Shown: positions 20,420 to 26,966, counted from the first letter of the stretch. The stretch is DNA of 47,336 nt from Candidatus Kapaibacterium sp. (GCA_050248595.1 JBFWSB010000001.1:1-47336), one strand, 5' to 3'. The notes: generated by a model from the sequence alone, not told the origin. A program made the numbers and translations.

Positions 20420-21610
20420 CTATATCGAAGATAGTTGACGGGATCGTTCGGTCGCCTCGATAATCTCCAGAGCGAACCGGTCGGCAAAGATACTTCCTTT
20501 CGCCGTAAGTCGCAGGGAATCTTCATCGAGCAGAGCGAAGCCTTCGTTCAACAACCATTCTACTCTGTCGGCTGCAACGCTCGTCAACTCTTCGCCAACA
20601 GCCTCTTTAAAGTCGTGAAGGTTAATCCCTCGGTAGCGGAGTCCTAACATCACGATCTCTTCCATCCCCTGCTCGGGAGTCAACTCCTCCCGCATAATCA
20701 CCGGACTTCCTCCCGACTCAATTGATTCGAGGTAGGCGTTCAGACTGGAGACGTTTGCCCAGCGTTTCCCCAACACTCCACGACGAGCGAAGCTGTGAGC
20801 CGATGGGCCGTAACCGGTATAGCTCTTCCGTTCCCAGTAGCCGATGTTGTGTCGGCAGGCGTAGCCCGGCTTCGCGTAGTTGCTCGTCTCGTACTGCTCC
20901 AAACCGTGTTGAGCCAGGAACTCTACAGTCTCTTCGTACATGTCGGCTTCAAGATCGTTCGGAGCGGGGTTTACCTTCCCCTTCAATCGCATTGCGTTCA
21001 GAGGTGTGCCCTCTTCAAAGATGAGAGAGTAGGCACTGATGTGATCGGTTCCAAGGTCGACCGCTCGCTCAAGATTGTAGTGCCAACGTTCGGGAGTCTG
21101 TCCCGGCAGTGCAAAGATCATATCGAGCGAGACGTTGTCGAAAACATCGCGGACGATCCGGATATTCTCTTCGGCCTCGGCTGCGGTGTGGATGCGGCTT
21201 AGGAACTGCAACTCATCGTCGTGGAATGACTGCACACCGAAGCTTAGTCGGTTGATTCCCCCCTCGCGGTATCCTTCCAACCAATCACGGTTCAGCGCAC
21301 CCGGATTGCACTCCATCGTGATCTCGGCATCCTCTACAACTGTGTGTGCAGTCCGCAGCGAACTGAGAATTGCACTCATCTCATCGGGAGAGAGCATCGA
21401 GGGTGTCCCGCCGCCGAAAAAGATCGTCCGAATCTCCTCCCGCTCCCCTCTCGTCGACGGGATTTCTCCCGACTGCGCAATCTCCCGGTGCAAGGCATCG
21501 AGGAAACGATCCTTGTTTGCAAAAGACTCAATTGAGTAGAAGCTACAGTAGATGCACTTCTTCTCGCAGAACGGTATGTGTATGTAGAGACCAGACATGG
21601 TGGAATTCAA
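20420..21610 (-). CDS. hemW: Radical SAM family heme chaperone HemW (coproporphyrinogen-III-oxidase-like)
   Basis: LYIHIPFCEKKCIYCSFYS (CxxxCxxC), FFGGGTPS and the HemN_C-like C-terminus. Confidence 0.9.
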   Translation of the reverse strand: MNSTMSGLYIHIPFCEKKCIYCSFYSIESFANKDRFLDALHREIAQSGEIPSTRGEREEIRTIFFGGGTPSMLSPDEMSAILSSLRTAHTVVEDAEITMECNPGALNRDWLEGYREGGINRLSFGVQSFHDDELQFLSRIHTAAEAEENIRIVRDVFDNVSLDMIFALPGQTPERWHYNLERAVDLGTDHISAYSLIFEEGTPLNAMRLKGKVNPAPNDLEADMYEETVEFLAQHGLEQYETSNYAKPGYACRHNIGYWERKSYTGYGPSAHSFARRGVLGKRWANVSSLNAYLESIESGGSPVIMREELTPEQGMEEIVMLGLRYRGINLHDFKEAVGEELTSVAADRVEWLLNEGFALLDEDSLRLTAKGSIFADRFALEIIEATERSRQLSSI

Positions 21611-21643: not shown

Positions 21644-22225
21644 TCAGGGGATGTAGACTTCGTTAATTCGGGTGACAATACCATCATGCAACTCGAAGCG
21701 GAAGATAGCGGAACGATAGTCGGTTTTCTTTGTGATCAGAAGTTCAACGTCTCCCTTCGCTTCCTCCAAGCTTTGATCTGCTTGGCTATACCAGAACTCA
21801 ACGGTAGCCTGCGCAGCTACAGTAAGTTTCTTCACTTCGCTCCTATCGTTAACGACAAAATAGTCGTTGTATACGAAGTACGTTGTATCCCCATTCTCCC
21901 CAATATCGACTTCTGCTTCTCCCCGTTCTTGAGCGGCAGCGATGGCATCATCATCCTGCGTGTAGAGGAGCAAATCAACATCGACATTATAGGAAGGCTG
22001 CGGGCTACGAGGATCACCCCGATTTATCAACCAAACACGATCAATCCTACCATAAACTGTTCCCGTTTCAGGCACGTCAGCAGGCTCTACAAATCGGTAG
22101 GGTAGAGTGAATGAATCTTTCGGCAGGCTCTCTGTTCTCTGATAGAGATCAGCACCCTGCTCTCTCGAACATGATAGTGCGCAAACAGCACCTATCAACA
22201 CCATTATCTTCCTGAATGTACTCAT
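21644..22225 (-). CDS. Hypothetical lipoprotein
   Basis: MSTFRKIMVLIGAVCALSCS lipobox-like signal. No recognised domain. Confidence 0.6.
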   Translation of the reverse strand: MSTFRKIMVLIGAVCALSCSREQGADLYQRTESLPKDSFTLPYRFVEPADVPETGTVYGRIDRVWLINRGDPRSPQPSYNVDVDLLLYTQDDDAIAAAQERGEAEVDIGENGDTTYFVYNDYFVVNDRSEVKKLTVAAQATVEFWYSQADQSLEEAKGDVELLITKKTDYRSAIFRFELHDGIVTRINEVYIP

Positions 22226-22261: not shown

Positions 22262-22426
22262 GAGAGCGCACAAAGTCGCAAAGAAGAGATCCAACTTTCG
22301 ACTCCTTGACTTGCCAACCTCTACCAATCCGGGCGAAGACTGAAGACCGGTCGGTACTCCTACACTCTCACACTCACGAACTCCCACACTCATACACTCA
22401 ACTCTACGAACTCTACTCCACTCTTT
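22262..22426 (+). repeat. Composite intergenic repeat, copy A (head GCGCA-AAG boxes, core TTGACTTGCCAACCTCTACCAATCCGGGCGAAG, C/A-rich tail CACACTCACGAAC...)
   Basis: It aligns by eye over nearly its whole length with the reverse complement of 38941-39063, and in modules with 24451-24871 and rc 26768-26966. It abuts or overlaps the last codons of lepB (stop at 22413). Confidence 0.8.
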
Positions 22427-23267
22427 TTCCTATCCTTCCCCACCGAATTCCATCTTCTCCACTCGACCAGAAAATCATTATTGCCTCTCCGATTAAATTT
22501 TCATATGGGATAAAACCGAAGTGGCGACTGTCGCGGCTGTTGGCGGAGTTATCGCCGAGCGCAAAGAAATAATCTTGCTTGAAACGGTAGCGGGTTGCAG
22601 GGCCGCCGTTGATAAAGACTATCCGGTTTTTGTAGGTGACGTTGACACCTTCGGCGTAGAGAACATCTTTCCAAGCTTCGGCAGTTATCGAATCGAGTGG
22701 TAGTTCATATCCTTTGTAGGGGACAATCACCATCTTCCTTTTTCGGAGCAGAGGCCAGGCCTTTTTCACATCCATCGGCTCGCGGCGAACTGTCGATAGA
22801 GAGAGAGGCTCAGGTTCTCTCCCATTGACGACAATCACTCCTTCAACCAGAGCAACTGTATCTCCGGGAAGAGCAACGGCACGTTTGAAAAGAGTTGAAT
22901 GATCCTCACTCACGTAAAGTTCGGGAGAGCGAAAGAGGACAATATCTCCACGCTCAAGACTCCCAAGCCCCCCCAACTCAAGGTGAGGGATAGGCCAGTG
23001 AGTGAAGGGAAAGAACTCTGGTGTGCGGATATAGTAGGGCAACTGATTAATGAGGACTGCATCTCCGGAAAGAATCGTCGGTTCCATTGACCTTGTTGGA
23101 ATGGCGTAAGGTGCAAAGACGAAGGTTCGCAGAATCAACAACCCCAACAGGGAATATCCAGTACCCCAGAGGAGTTTGCGAAACGCATCGGATGGAGACT
23201 TTTCCTCTCCTGCAATTACCGCCCCACCTGCCTCCACCGATTCTTCTGTATGATCGGTCTGGTTCAT
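22413..23267 (-). CDS. lepB: Signal peptidase I (paralog 1)
   Basis: One TM, SMEPTI (catalytic Ser box), LFKRAVALPGD (Lys box) and GDNSANSRDSRHFGFIP (box E). Confidence 0.9.
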   Translation of the reverse strand: MNQTDHTEESVEAGGAVIAGEEKSPSDAFRKLLWGTGYSLLGLLILRTFVFAPYAIPTRSMEPTILSGDAVLINQLPYYIRTPEFFPFTHWPIPHLELGGLGSLERGDIVLFRSPELYVSEDHSTLFKRAVALPGDTVALVEGVIVVNGREPEPLSLSTVRREPMDVKKAWPLLRKRKMVIVPYKGYELPLDSITAEAWKDVLYAEGVNVTYKNRIVFINGGPATRYRFKQDYFFALGDNSANSRDSRHFGFIPYENLIGEAIMIFWSSGEDGIRWGRIGKRVE

Positions 23268-23348
23268 TTGCAGTGCGGATAGTCTCTTGCAATGAACAAT
23301 GCCTTACTTCGCGAAACTCTTTCCCTTTTTAGACTTGTAAGCCGAACT

Positions 23349-24356
23349 TTAATCAACACTGTTGAAGATGCGATCCCAGCGAATGCGACCGAGCTTTTCG
23401 CCGATGGAATATTCGTGGCTTGCTGCATCCTTATTCTGCCACGACCAGTAGACGATCAACGGTGTGCCGACAACGTTCTCCACTGGGACAAAGCCCCAGA
23501 ATCGACTGTCGAGCGAGTTGTCTCGGTTATCACCCATACCGAAGACGTAGTCACGTTCAACAGTGTAGGAGTCGACAGTCTGCCCGTCGATCTCTATGAT
23601 CCCCCCCGACCGCCGGATGTCGTGTCCTTCCCGCTCGATAAAGATCTCCCAACCCTGATAGTTTGTGTCGTTCAGCGCGATAACGTCCCCCTCTTTCGGA
23701 ATTCGCATCGGTCCCCAGTTATCGTGCGTCCACTGCCGCCCACGAGGGAAGGTGGTATATATCTCATCGGAACGAACACCATGGTTTCGCACATATTGAA
23801 CCTTCGACGGGGGAACCTCTTTCACGCCGTTAACGTAAACAACTCCGTTTCGAACCTCTAAGGTATCTCCGGCTGTAGCCACGCACCGTTTTAGGTAGTA
23901 TTGAAAGTCTGTTGCCTCAACTTGATCCCGGTCACCTGGATAGATAAAGACAATCACATCCCCTTTCTCAGGATCGCGCAGACCGGGAAGCTTTAGGTAG
24001 GGGAGTGGAATGTTTAGGAAAGGAATAGTCTGCGGTGTAGAACCGCCGTAAATAAAACGGTTGACGAACAAGAAATCTCCGGCCAGAACCTCCCCCTCCA
24101 TCGACTCAGTTGGAACGACGAACGATTGGATCAGCAGACCGTTGACGACCATCACAATTAGGAGTGCACCAAGGATTGTCTTTGCCCAGGAGACTGTCAC
24201 TTCTTGCCAAGTCATCGGCTGCTGGCGTTCCTTACCCTTTCCTTTTCCCTTGGGGTCTCCTTCGCCCGGCTGTGCACTATCTGCCTGCTTTGGGTTCCGC
24301 TGGACTTTCTTTCCCTTACCGGTAAGGATCTGTTTGCGTTCTTCAGGATTCATCAA
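23349..24356 (-). CDS. lepB: Signal peptidase I (paralog 2) with Lys/Gly-rich N-terminal tail
   Basis: SMEGEV, YLKRCVATAGD and GDNRDNSLDSRFWGFVP. The N-terminus is MMNPEERKQILTGKGKKVQRNPKQADSAQPGEGDPKGKGKGKERQQ before the TM. Confidence 0.9.
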   Translation of the reverse strand: MMNPEERKQILTGKGKKVQRNPKQADSAQPGEGDPKGKGKGKERQQPMTWQEVTVSWAKTILGALLIVMVVNGLLIQSFVVPTESMEGEVLAGDFLFVNRFIYGGSTPQTIPFLNIPLPYLKLPGLRDPEKGDVIVFIYPGDRDQVEATDFQYYLKRCVATAGDTLEVRNGVVYVNGVKEVPPSKVQYVRNHGVRSDEIYTTFPRGRQWTHDNWGPMRIPKEGDVIALNDTNYQGWEIFIEREGHDIRRSGGIIEIDGQTVDSYTVERDYVFGMGDNRDNSLDSRFWGFVPVENVVGTPLIVYWSWQNKDAASHEYSIGEKLGRIRWDRIFNSVD

Positions 24357-24450
24357 CTCGTTCTCTATGTTCTGATATACAGGATGTCGTTATCTCTATA
24401 GTTTCTTTTTCAACAAGGCTTCCCTTACGGGGTGGAGGGAAAGGAAGTTA

Positions 24451-24871
24451 CTCACGCAAAGGAGAGTTCTAACTCCTTGAGTTCTGAGTTGATAGACTCG
24501 GCAACCCCTACATTTCCCGACACAGCCTAAAGAGTTGCGGCTACCATGCCTTCCCCACTCATACACTCCCACACTCACGAACTCTTCCACTTCATGTGTT
24601 CTGAATTGATAGCCTTGACTGTCCCCCTACCAATCCTGACGCAACCTAAAGTGTTGCGGCTACCACGCCTTCCCCACTCATCCTCTCCCGCACTCACGAA
24701 CTCTTCCACTTCATGTGTGCTGAATTGATAGCCTTGACTGTCCCCTCTACCAATCCTGACGCAACCTAAAGTGTTGCGGCTACCATCATATCATCCTTAC
24801 TCATACACTCCCACACTCACGAACCCATACACTCCACTCTATAAACTCTCAACTCTACACACTCTACGAAC
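24451..24871 (+). repeat. Composite intergenic repeat, copy C: three tandem units of about 119 bp (24481-24598, 24599-24717, 24718-24871) preceded by a head fragment
   Basis: Units read directly: TTCTGAATTGATAGCCTTGACTGTCCCCCTACCAATCCTGACGCAACCTAAAGTGTTGCGGCTACCACGCCTTCCCCACTCAT...CACTCACGAACTCTTCCACTTCATGTG. Units 2 and 3 are nearly identical in the first 65 bp or so. Each unit holds a GACGCAAC-CTAAAGT-GTTGCGGC hairpin. Confidence 0.9.
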
Positions 24872-24877
24872 TTATAA

Positions 24878-26695
24878 TTAGTCATCATCCATCGACAGAA
24901 CTGCGAGGAAGGCCTCTTGCGGAATCTCGACGGAGCCGACCTGTTTCATTCGCTTCTTTCCCTCCTTCTGCTTTTCGAGGAGTTTTCTCTTACGCGAGAT
25001 GTCACCACCGTAACACTTTGCGGTTACATCTTTCCGCATCGCTCGGATACTGTCGCGCGCAATCACCTTTGCACCAATTGCAGCTTGCACCACGACCTCG
25101 TACATCTGGCGTGGAATCAACTCTCTCAACTTACCACACAATTTCCGTCCGTAATGGTAGGATTTTGAGCGGTGGACGATCAAGGAGAGAGCATCGACCT
25201 TATCGCCGTTCAAGAGAATGTCAACCTTCACAAGATCTTCCTCACGCATGTCAATCACCTCGTAGTCGAAGGAGGCATATCCTCGTGAGATCGACTTTAG
25301 GCGGTCGTAGAAATCGAAAATTACCTCACCGAGTGGAAGCTCGAAGCTCATGTCGACACGATCCTGCGAAAGATACTTCGTATCCTTGAAGATTGCTCGA
25401 CGCTCCATGCAGAGCTTGGTGACCGGGCCGATATAGTCGGAAGGACAGATAATTTGTGCCCGGATGAATGGCTCGGCAATGCCTTCAATATCACCAACTG
25501 CTGGCATCTTCGCAGGGTTGTCCACTTTCAGTTCTTCGCCACTCTTTTTTGTGACTCGGTACTGTACGTTCGGAACAGTCGTGACAATTGTCTGCTCGAA
25601 CTCCCGCTCCAATCGTTCCTGCACAATCTCCATGTGGAGAAGTCCAAGAAACCCGCACCGGAAGCCGAAACCGAGAGCTGTTGAGGTTTCTGGCTCGAAG
25701 ACGAGAGAAGAATCGTTCAGAGCCAGTTTATCGAGCGCGTCGCGGAGTGCCTCGTAGTCGTCAGAATCGGCAGGGTAGATGCCGGCAAAGACCATTGGCT
25801 TCACTTCTTGATAACCCGGGATTGGGTTCTCGGCTCCCCCTCGTGCCAGAGTTACGGTGTCGCCAACCTTTGTATCCTTTACATCCTTGATCGAGGCAGT
25901 GAAGTAGCCAACCGAACCACAGGAGATTTCGGCTCCCTGCACTCGCTTCATGCGCAACAGTCCGCACTCATCTACTTCAAACTTCTTCCCACTGTGCATC
26001 ATGATAATCTCATCCCCCTTCCGCATCACCCCGTCAACAACGCGAACGTAGGCGATAGCTCCACGGTATGGATCGAAGACAGAGTCGAAAATCAAGGCGC
26101 GAAGTGGGGCATCTGGATCACCTTTCGGTGGAGGGACGCGATCGACGAGAGCTTCGAGAATCTCGTGGATGCCAATTCCCGACTTCGCGGAGCTAAGAAT
26201 AATTTCTTCTTCCTTGCACCCAATCAAGTCCATCACCTGCGCCTTCACTGTTTCCAGCGTGGTGGTGGCTGCCGGAAGGTCGATCTTGTTGATGACCGGA
26301 ATAATCTCCAAATCGGCATCAATTGCCAAGTAGAGGTTCGAAATCGTCTGCGCTTCCACTCCCTGCGTGGCATCTACAATCAGAAGTGCCCCCTCACACG
26401 CCTTCAGCGAACGAGAGACCTCATAACTGAAGTCGACGTGCCCCGGCGTGTCAATCAGGTTGAGTGTGTAGACTGACTTATCACCGGTCTCTTTGGGCCG
26501 GATATAGTTCATCTGAATCGCGTGCAGCTTGATCGTGATCCCACGTTCTTGCTCCAGCGGATTATTGTCCAGAATCTGGGCGTTTGTCATCTCCCGCTTC
26601 GTGATCGCCCCGGTATACTCCAACAACCGGTCGGCAAGAGTTGACTTGCCGTGATCTATGTGAGCGATGATGCAGAAATTGCGGATATTGTTCAT
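24878..26695 (-). CDS. lepA: Translation elongation factor 4 (LepA)
   Basis: [22 protein letters not shown] (G1), [19 protein letters not shown] (G3), NKIDL (G4) and the LepA-specific C-terminal domain ...[22 protein letters not shown]. Confidence 0.97.
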
Positions 26696-26767: not shown

Positions 26768-26966
26768 TGTGAGAGTTCATAGAGTTATGAGTTGAGAGTG
26801 CGGAGTGAAGTGTGTGAGTTCGTGAGTGGGGGAGTGGATTGGTGGGGAAGGCATGGTAGGCGTAACTCTTTAGGTTGCGTCGTGATTGGCAGATGGGTCA
26901 AGCCGATCAATTCAGAACTCAGAAAGTCACCCTTCTTTGCGTCTTTGCGCCTTTGCGTGCCCTCTA
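26768..26966 (-). repeat. Composite intergenic repeat, copy D (inverted relative to copies A and C)
   Basis: The reverse complement reads GCACGCAAAGGCGCAAAGACGCAAAGAAGG...GAGTTCTGAATTGATCGGCTTGACCCATCTGCCAATCACGACGCAACCTAAAGAGTTACGCCTACCATGCCTTCCCCACC...CCCACTCACGAACTCACACAC. This is colinear with the units of copy C. It sits in the lepA/mpg divergent intergenic region. Confidence 0.85.

Follow-up and report, generated by a model that had tools for sequence, protein, structure and literature searches.

Three tandem units in the lepA-lepB spacer of a Candidatus Kapaibacterium genome: probably a head-to-tail cluster of a dispersed GTAG-type REP element

The stretch of DNA under study (the window, 47,336 nucleotides from Candidatus Kapaibacterium sp.) carries lepA and lepB on its minus strand. 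The upstream gene of this pair, lepA (24878-26695, minus), encodes a protein of 605 aa that was recognized by the Pfam models GTP_EFTU (1.2e-56) and LepA_C (1.8e-51) and is 99% identical to LepA of G002, an assembly of the same genus. Judged by the ORF coordinates and the sequence, the spacer between the two genes (24357-24877, minus) is exactly 521 bp long, and it holds a tandem array. Right after the lepA stop codon, an 8-nt periodic tract of the form GAGTnnnn begins (24786-24873, minus). It was evident from the sequence, from the period 8 and 16 rows of Tandem Repeats Finder, from a genome-wide excess of period-8 GAGT tracts and from an alignment with G002 and G003, another assembly of the genus, according to which the proximal part of the tract is common to both relatives while the tract is extended in G000, the window's own assembly. 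Three units follow each other on the minus strand. Unit a, nearest to lepA (24715-24840), comprises tract, REP hairpin and tail and scored 85.4 bits with nhmmer; the REP covariance model matched at 24738-24788 (E 3.2e-9). The middle unit b (24596-24713) scored 76.7 bits, with its REP match at 24616-24668, and is further characterized by the module identities given below. Unit c, nearest to lepB (24479-24594), scored 92.4 bits, has its REP match at 24499-24549 and corresponds in the alignment to the only unit of G002. Adjacent to lepB, the final 114 bp of the spacer (24357-24470, minus) lie outside the repeat and constitute a native leader, conserved with G002 and partly with the element-free spacer of G001, a third relative within the genus. 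This leader contains a CTTCC...GGGAAG hairpin (CTTCCTTTCCCTCC-ACCCCGT-AAGGGAAG), which is kept in G002 and recognizable in G001 and which could be the true lepB-proximal signal, either a promoter or an RNA structure.

Downstream of the spacer, two signal peptidase I genes are arranged in tandem (22413-24356, minus): lepB-1 (23349-24356; 335 aa; Pfam Peptidase_S26, 1.7e-37) and its paralogue lepB-2 (22413-23267; 284 aa; Peptidase_S26, 1.5e-35). Their products are approximately 30% identical to each other, and since the pair is conserved in G001, G002 and G005, which belongs to another genus, the duplication is old. Between lepB-2 and a HemN-like radical-SAM gene (20420-21610, minus) lies an ORF of 193 aa (21644-22225, minus) without a Pfam or NCBIfam match. 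It is missing at the equivalent position of G002, in which a REP unit and hemN come directly after lepB-2. The ORF might have been inserted recently or might be spurious. The window contains three solo copies of the unit: one upstream of lepA that is inverted relative to the array (26804-26920, plus; 67.6 bits), one downstream of lepB-2 (22305-22392, minus; 60.6 bits), both with orthologous copies in G002, and a further one at 38942-39039 (plus; 57.1 bits). Other short tandem words, e.g. CTTTGCG boxes at 26925-26960, accompany the units.

The array had been pointed out in an earlier note as three head-to-tail units of about 119 bp which nearly fill the spacer. This description was confirmed by Tandem Repeats Finder (period 119, 2.6 copies, 89% matches at 24515-24824) and by a repeat search of the spacer, in which each sub-segment was present in three in-register copies at a spacing of 117-123. 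The hairpin mentioned in the same note is real as well and reads CGCAAC-ACTTTAG-GTTGCG on the minus strand; the strand itself had been missed, the genes and the sense of the element both lying on minus. The note had also inferred a recent amplification from a near-identical half in two of the units, and the module identities bear this out: units a and b share 96% identity in their REP halves, units b and c 90% in their tract halves, and the remaining pairs 66-74%. Such a pattern fits one shifted-register duplication of 119 bp in an array of two units.

To describe the unit, the profile and the aligned copies were read on the minus strand, which is the mRNA-sense and G-rich strand. Three modules can be distinguished. 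Module A is a G/T-rich octamer tract composed of four to six GAGTnnnn; in the genome, 38 exact period-8 GAGT tracts were counted, compared to 0-7 for control tetramers. Module B, the REP proper, starts with TGGTAG, continues with a 6-bp stem and the loop TCTTYAG, and ends with CGGGAT..GTAGAG. Module C is the tail ..GTCGAGTCTAyhAAgTCAGAAC, which can pair back on GTAGA as a second, imperfect hairpin. This second hairpin (GTAGA...TCTAC, longer in the window copies) is present but nearly invariant and hence without evidence by covariation. By contrast, the stem of module B varies in a complementary manner (AAC/GTT, AGG/CCT, AGC/GCT, AAG/CTT, ACC/GGT, TTGG/CCAA). Across 70 copies, 88% of the cells were paired and 66 cells showed changes in both partners, while shuffles gave 27.8 +/- 5.5 and slid controls no more than eight such cells, and RNAalifold recovered the identical helix. 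G.U pairs (21) and A.C mismatches (19) were about equally frequent in the stem; therefore, selection on a particular RNA strand is not apparent. With its 6-bp stem and 7-nt loop the hairpin is a short palindrome able to form a stem-loop, as expected of REPs (20-40 nt). Directly 5' of the stem, G5, G6, T7, A8 and G9 are each at least 90% conserved (alignment A1), and GTAG followed by C or G precedes 35 of the 54 perfect hairpins with a TCTTYAG-type loop. Modules A and B also occur separately, as 31 loci contain the tract without a REP and an array on contig C112 consists of REPs at a 67-nt period without the tract. Rfam 15 gave no gathering-level match over the whole window; with permissive E-values, the best sub-threshold matches over the spacer reached 13-16 bits (E at least 1.5). 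In some units, a second GTAG-headed hairpin with an 8-bp stem (GTAGGGAGCAAAAACTTTTGCTCCC or GTAGGGGGCAAAAACCTTTGCCCC) sits between the octamer tract and the REP, namely in G000 at C78:12891-13044 and C199:4176-4325, and in G003 just downstream of lepA (L037:3100-3150). It is a second REP family nesting in the first one.

The unit is by no means restricted to the lepA-lepB spacer. G000 comprises 4.49 Mb on 511 contigs, with 50% G+C and 95% completeness. A BLAST search of this assembly with one unit yielded 49 matches, three rounds of nhmmer 155 matches at 123 loci, and the REP covariance model 94 matches. A single unit was found at 97 of the 123 loci, two units at 21, three at four and four at one, so that 26 loci are multi-unit. 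Mixed orientation was encountered at only 3 of the 123 loci, the arrays being otherwise head-to-tail. On the basis of crude ORF calls, 126 of the 155 nhmmer matches are intergenic, which makes the element a high-copy extragenic one. With the same crude calls and the G-rich strand taken as plus, units between co-directional genes were sense in 34 and antisense in 15 cases (binomial p = 0.009), and convergent gene pairs enclosed 25 loci, divergent pairs 12. The unit began shortly behind the stop codon of a co-oriented upstream ORF at 59 of 86 loci, with its 5' end at a median distance of 5-16 nt. The orientation bias of about 2:1 could result from selection at the RNA level rather than from purely selfish spread, or from replication-linked insertion into single strands. 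The period spectrum of Tandem Repeats Finder over the whole genome, in which periods 7-10 were all common at low score, was uninformative without a control.

Two further observations concern repeats elsewhere. In G002, the strand of the REPs is regionally biased: on contig C1, matches below 420 kb are mostly on minus (three at 4-18 kb are on plus) and all listed matches above 800 kb are on plus, and on C8, 10 of 14 matches are on minus. This bias, seen on the G002 contigs C1, C7 and C8, suggests that the REP strand might be connected with replication or with the direction of genes. Another dispersed repeat family was noticed in G000 at C83:10560-12760 (locus L022, outside the window). It consists of direct repeats of a unit of approximately 400 bp which is made of several G+C-rich hairpins, e.g. 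CAGCCGCCCCTTCAGGGCGGA, GCCCCGGAGGGGC and CCGTGGGG..CCCCACGG; these recur 28-62 times on 19-28 contigs, and the first of them has a CTTCA loop, the same as the lepA-lepB REP. An IS200-type Y1 transposase gene (171 aa, C83:11339-11854) is embedded in these repeats.

At the lepA-lepB locus itself, the number of units differs among relatives. Within the genus, G002 has a spacer of about 293 bp with one unit, which shares its flanks and the octamer tract after the stop codon with the array of G000. G003 (LepA 94% identical) has the tract plus a REP on a contig that ends before lepB, and G001 (90%) possesses a spacer of about 150 bp without any unit. Units are also lacking in two assemblies of other genera, G005 (78%) and G012 (77%), whose spacers measure only about 10 bp and 170 bp, respectively. 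The comparison of copy number proposed in the earlier note thus gave three units in G000, one in G002 and none in G001, G005 and G012, and the view that spacers in this operon are normally short held true. Metagenomes were scanned with two patterns for other lepA-lepB alleles; there was no match to the first pattern, and the second one detected one locus only, which is G001-like and element-free. According to the covariance-model search, most genomes of the same taxonomic family and class lack this family of REP units.

The unit number was also compared at orthologous REP loci. For this purpose, 22 loci of G002, chosen from its best matches, were mapped onto G000, the DNA identity at these places being approximately 84-93%. 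While 20 of the 22 loci were occupied in both genomes, the number of units differed at 10 of the 22, the differences between G000 and G002 including 1 versus 3 (twice), 2 versus 0, 3 versus 1, 2 versus 1, 1 versus 2 and 1 versus 0. Since 20 of 22 loci are shared, most insertions predate the split of G000 and G002, and later change has mainly been local gain or loss, which, for loci taken from the best G002 matches, agrees with a lineage that lacks an active RAYT. Two sites carry a REP module in G002 but are empty in G000; there, the module of G002 is located within direct duplications of an octamer tract of the AATTCAAA type (L045:1880-2220 and L049:1940-2220 of G002, compared to C392 and C258 of G000; REP modules inside AATTCAAA/AGGCAAAA tracts). 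At L045, the clearer site, the flanking duplication is about 36 nt long, and the orthologous sites in G000 contain the tract once. Modules can be gained or lost by slippage or unequal recombination at direct repeats of this type.

To trace the REP beyond the genus, a 27-nt IUPAC pattern of module B was searched in a 596-Gb species collection, for which about 0.07 matches are expected by chance. The pattern matched 47 stretches from several phyla. Among the records were the Ignavibacteria MAG HK-STAS-BACT-82 (G002) and the 'Bacteroidota' genome ES1.bin.100 (G009), which belongs to the same family, but also MAGs and SAGs labelled Omnitrophota, Elusimicrobiota, Thermoanaerobaculia, Verrucomicrobiia, Chloroflexia and Roseobacter. 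What these genomes of other phyla have in common is only the GTAG-hairpin core, present as single copies, direct tandems or REPIN-like inverted doublets. As the cross-phylum matches lie in MAGs, mis-binning of small contigs may have contributed to them.

RAYTs are HUH/Y1 enzymes acting on single-stranded DNA that recognize GTAG plus a hairpin. Y1 transposases were sought in the pattern-bearing genomes, and the matches were scanned for the hairpin. In five genomes (G004, G009, G015, G020 and G041), the hairpin brackets a RAYT gene (159-174 aa) in inverted orientation with the GTAG ends outside; four of them belong to the family of the window genome, whereas G041 is an Omnitrophota MAG. Inverted REPs around a RAYT gene are the classical REP-RAYT arrangement (Nunvar 2010, PMC2817692; Di Nocera 2013, PMC3733652). 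The NCBIfam model NF047646, 'REP-associated tyrosine transposase' (cut-off 80), scored 95 bits for the protein of G009, 83 bits for that of G041 and 124 bits for that of G049, and all three proteins contain the HUH motif (MPDH[LV]H) and the Y..NPV motif. The G041 protein also gave a weak but specific match to E. coli TnpA-REP (PDB 4ER8). The RAYTs of G009, a genome of an Ignavibacteria family, and of G041, an Omnitrophota MAG, are only 42% identical to each other, yet the same 27-nt GTAG hairpin lies beside both. The single-stranded REP hairpin GGTAGCCGCAACTCTTCAGGTTGCGCC is a putative substrate for binding and cleavage by such a RAYT.

Within the genus, a full RAYT copy (93 bits), flanked by the variant REP GGTAGCCGCAGCGCTTTACGCCTGCGG, was detected in G003. 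In G000, genome searches with the G009 RAYT and with NF047646 revealed none, and tblastn with three RAYTs gave weak matches on IS200-type genes (best E = 0.015). G002, which is 98% complete on 10 contigs, showed only a fragment-level match of 44 bits. G000 is fragmented and the gene could be missing from the assembly; a real absence is more likely in G002. Because neither assembly contains an NF047646-type RAYT, mobilization in this lineage is inferred from relatives only. The Y1_Tnp genes (PF01797) of G000 itself were considered as a source of the cognate enzyme and rejected: none of the three matches (C8, C83 and C462) has a match to the REP model nearby, the proteins on C8 and C83 are of the IS200/IS605 type according to NCBIfam, and the C83 gene lies within the different repeat family described above.

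The earlier note had suggested that the array probably affects lepB expression through processing, termination or mRNA stability. Its description as a structured and recently amplified tandem element stands, but the notion of a dedicated device acting on lepB is not supported, given that the unit is a genome-wide repeat of variable number. We regard it as very unlikely that the array acts in cis as a dedicated regulator of the lepA-lepB operon which sets lepB expression by one of these routes and was amplified for its usefulness. In favor of such a function, the array sits within an operon that is usually compact, in the sense orientation of the transcript, and the G-rich sense strand folds more stably (-26 to -38 kcal/mol per unit) than the antisense strand (-16 to -24 kcal/mol). 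Furthermore, REPs in operon spacers of E. coli alter relative mRNA stability. On the other hand, the identical unit type is found at 123 loci beside unrelated genes, and the variation of zero, one or three units in the spacers of close relatives, together with the variable number at nearly half of the orthologous loci, argues against conserved control. Neither a sigma-70-like promoter nor an intrinsic terminator was predicted in the region 24200-25000, in the latter case on either strand, and the fold z-scores were unremarkable (-2.3 for the sense spacer, +0.3 to -2.6 for single units). The balance of G.U and A.C in the stem likewise speaks against strand-specific selection on the RNA. None of the RNA runs searched contained the lepA-lepB locus. 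In E. coli, REPs are reported to influence translation of the preceding gene only when they lie within about 15 nt of its stop codon. Since the first REP hairpin starts 92 nt past the stop codon of lepA, this effect would not apply here. By analogy with E. coli, the hairpins may, as a side effect, protect lepA mRNA from 3' exonucleases or impose polarity on lepB. It is also conceivable, though quite unlikely, that the host has recruited the unit as a general intercistronic or 3'-UTR module whose amplification is tolerated or favored throughout the genome, possibly as an array for an RNA-binding protein on GAGU repeats combined with protective hairpins. The location shortly behind co-oriented stop codons, the preference for sense over antisense and for convergent over divergent gene pairs, and the excess of GAGT tracts would agree with this. 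However, the genes were called as crude ORFs, the bias does not exceed about 2:1 and may instead reflect replication-linked single-strand transposition, and the tract and the REP also occur apart. Moreover, the idea that the tract serves as an all-frame stop device failed its control, as 25 of 37 units closed all three frames compared to 27 of 37 shuffled ones, and the absence of the family from most genomes of the same family and class is a poor fit with an essential host function.

Two other explanations concern the origin of the array. A MITE, i.e. a deletion derivative of a DDE-type insertion sequence that was inserted three times or duplicated, would likewise be small, non-coding, high-copy, intergenic and patchy among relatives. 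We consider it extremely improbable, since neither terminal inverted repeats nor short target-site duplications were found, since the comparison of occupied with empty sites revealed that up to about 36 nt of the AATTCAAA-octamer tract are directly duplicated, and since the hairpin with GTAG head that forms the conserved core flanks genes for RAYTs and not for a DDE transposase. A CRISPR array was rejected as well, because the sequences separating the hairpins are repetitive, consisting of tract and tail modules that are found again at other loci. Finally, a short-read assembler might have collapsed or expanded a repeat that has fewer units at the true locus. G000 is a MAG of 511 contigs at about 6x depth, unitigs break within the array, and the read layout contained low-confidence 'skip' joints. 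However, the units differ from each other (REP halves 72-96%, tract halves 66-90% identical). The DNA runs that cover the locus best are landfill metagenomes. In run X1, probably the source sample, error-free unitigs (24000-24582, 24555-24656, 24636-24776, 24756-24865 and 24843-25300) overlap so that both internal junctions are tiled. The a/b junction was also covered without mismatch in X2 and in X4, the latter from a different study, while the b/c junction was covered in X1 only. The sides of the skip joints are 22-27 nt at 90% likeness, flagged as typical of other repeat copies, and the joints probably derive from other members of the REP-unit family. These short reads give good support for a count of exactly three units, although it is independent for only some of the junctions; an artefact is hardly credible.

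The best explanation, to which we assign a probability of roughly 0.8, is that a GTAG-type REP, contained in a composite unit of approximately 119 bp, has formed a local head-to-tail cluster in the lepA-lepB spacer. The features by which GTAG REP sequences are defined are all present, whereas a cognate RAYT has been found in relatives alone. A plausible course of events is that a unit landed in the lepA-lepB spacer within the genus of G000 and that a two-unit array in the G000 species then gained its third unit by the register-shifted duplication mentioned above, which would have occurred by replication slippage or by unequal recombination between direct repeats. If so, present-day changes in copy number are probably independent of a transposase. 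On the lepA-lepB transcript, the three hairpins might act as barriers to 3'-5' exonucleases or as partial polarity sites, as do E. coli REPs, but presumably as a by-product and not as conserved control. A more far-reaching version, which we consider unlikely, holds that the REP population is orphaned yet still active and that the host has adopted the 119-nt unit as a standard intercistronic RNA module, three copies of which tune the lepA:lepB ratio. It draws on the persistence of over 70-90 copies with changing array lengths in G000 and G002, both RAYT-less assemblies, and on the fusion of the REP to an 8-nt periodic GAGU tract, biased to the transcript sense just past stop codons. As a REP cluster, the array illustrates that even a conspicuous tandem arrangement in a housekeeping operon does not have to be regulatory; in the present case, it is a mark of REP activity. 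The genus with RAYT-bearing (G003) and RAYT-less members (G000 and G002) offers a natural comparison for array change without a transposase, and the number of units at REP loci could serve as a strain marker in metagenomes.

The array is an ordinary kind of repeat, a local accumulation of a small selfish hairpin element similar to REP/BIME clusters, and not a control element dedicated to lepB. Mycobacterial MIRU-VNTRs and the pneumococcal BOX elements are also tandem or modular units of about 50-120 bp in intercistronic spacers, and their number varies between strains or species. The variable unit number at 10 of 22 loci resembles these elements, but no relation in sequence is known and the small overlapping ORFs typical of MIRUs are not in evidence here. 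To our knowledge, neither BOX nor MIRU is GTAG-headed or linked to a RAYT. Another counterpart is the E. coli REP/BIME system with TnpA-REP, the 'REPtron' (PMC2817692; Messing 2012, PMC3479197, PDB 4ER8; PMC8266576). Both systems share the enzyme family, as shown by NF047646 scores above the cut-off and the match to 4ER8, the bracketing of the RAYT by inverted REPs (in relatives of G000) and the occurrence of arrays in operon spacers. What separates them is that BIMEs have alternating REP orientation with defined linkers while the arrays described here are unidirectional, mixed orientation being confined to the three loci mentioned, and that the assemblies of G000 and G002 are without a RAYT. 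REPINs (Bertels and Rainey 2011, PMC3116915) find a parallel in the inverted doublets of the hairpin in the Omnitrophota MAG and in a MAG labelled 'uncultured bacterium' (L100 and L103), whereas nearly all hairpins in G000 stand alone or form direct tandems.

Close similarity exists to the GTAG REPs surveyed by Di Nocera, De Gregorio and Rocco (2013, PMC3733652), which also occur reiterated in tandem along with flanking DNA. In both cases, a 5' GTAG directly precedes a short stem-loop, complementary variants of the stem form sub-families, the elements are high-copy and extragenic and appear as singletons or in tandem clusters with flanking DNA, and some families are common to evolutionarily distant organisms. 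There are also differences. The loop is 7 nt long and conserved (TCTTYAG) while most loops described have 2-4 nt, head-to-tail arrangement dominates although head-tail dimers were reported to be absent or rare in most genomes, and the REP is embedded in a fixed unit of 119 bp with an octamer tract. A GAGT-octamer tract and tail of this kind are found in no described REP. What is less usual here is the predominance of head-to-tail arrays, the conserved 7-nt loop, the fusion to the octamer tract, the host group and the existence of two REP-rich species apparently without a RAYT. With respect to the host group, the survey listed GTAG REPs in Proteobacteria, Cyanobacteria, Chloroflexi and the PVC superphylum, and for Chlorobi/Bacteroidetes solely CGTC-type repeats (PMC3733652), so that the hosts of GTAG-type REPs now gain a genus of the Ignavibacteria (Bacteroidota).
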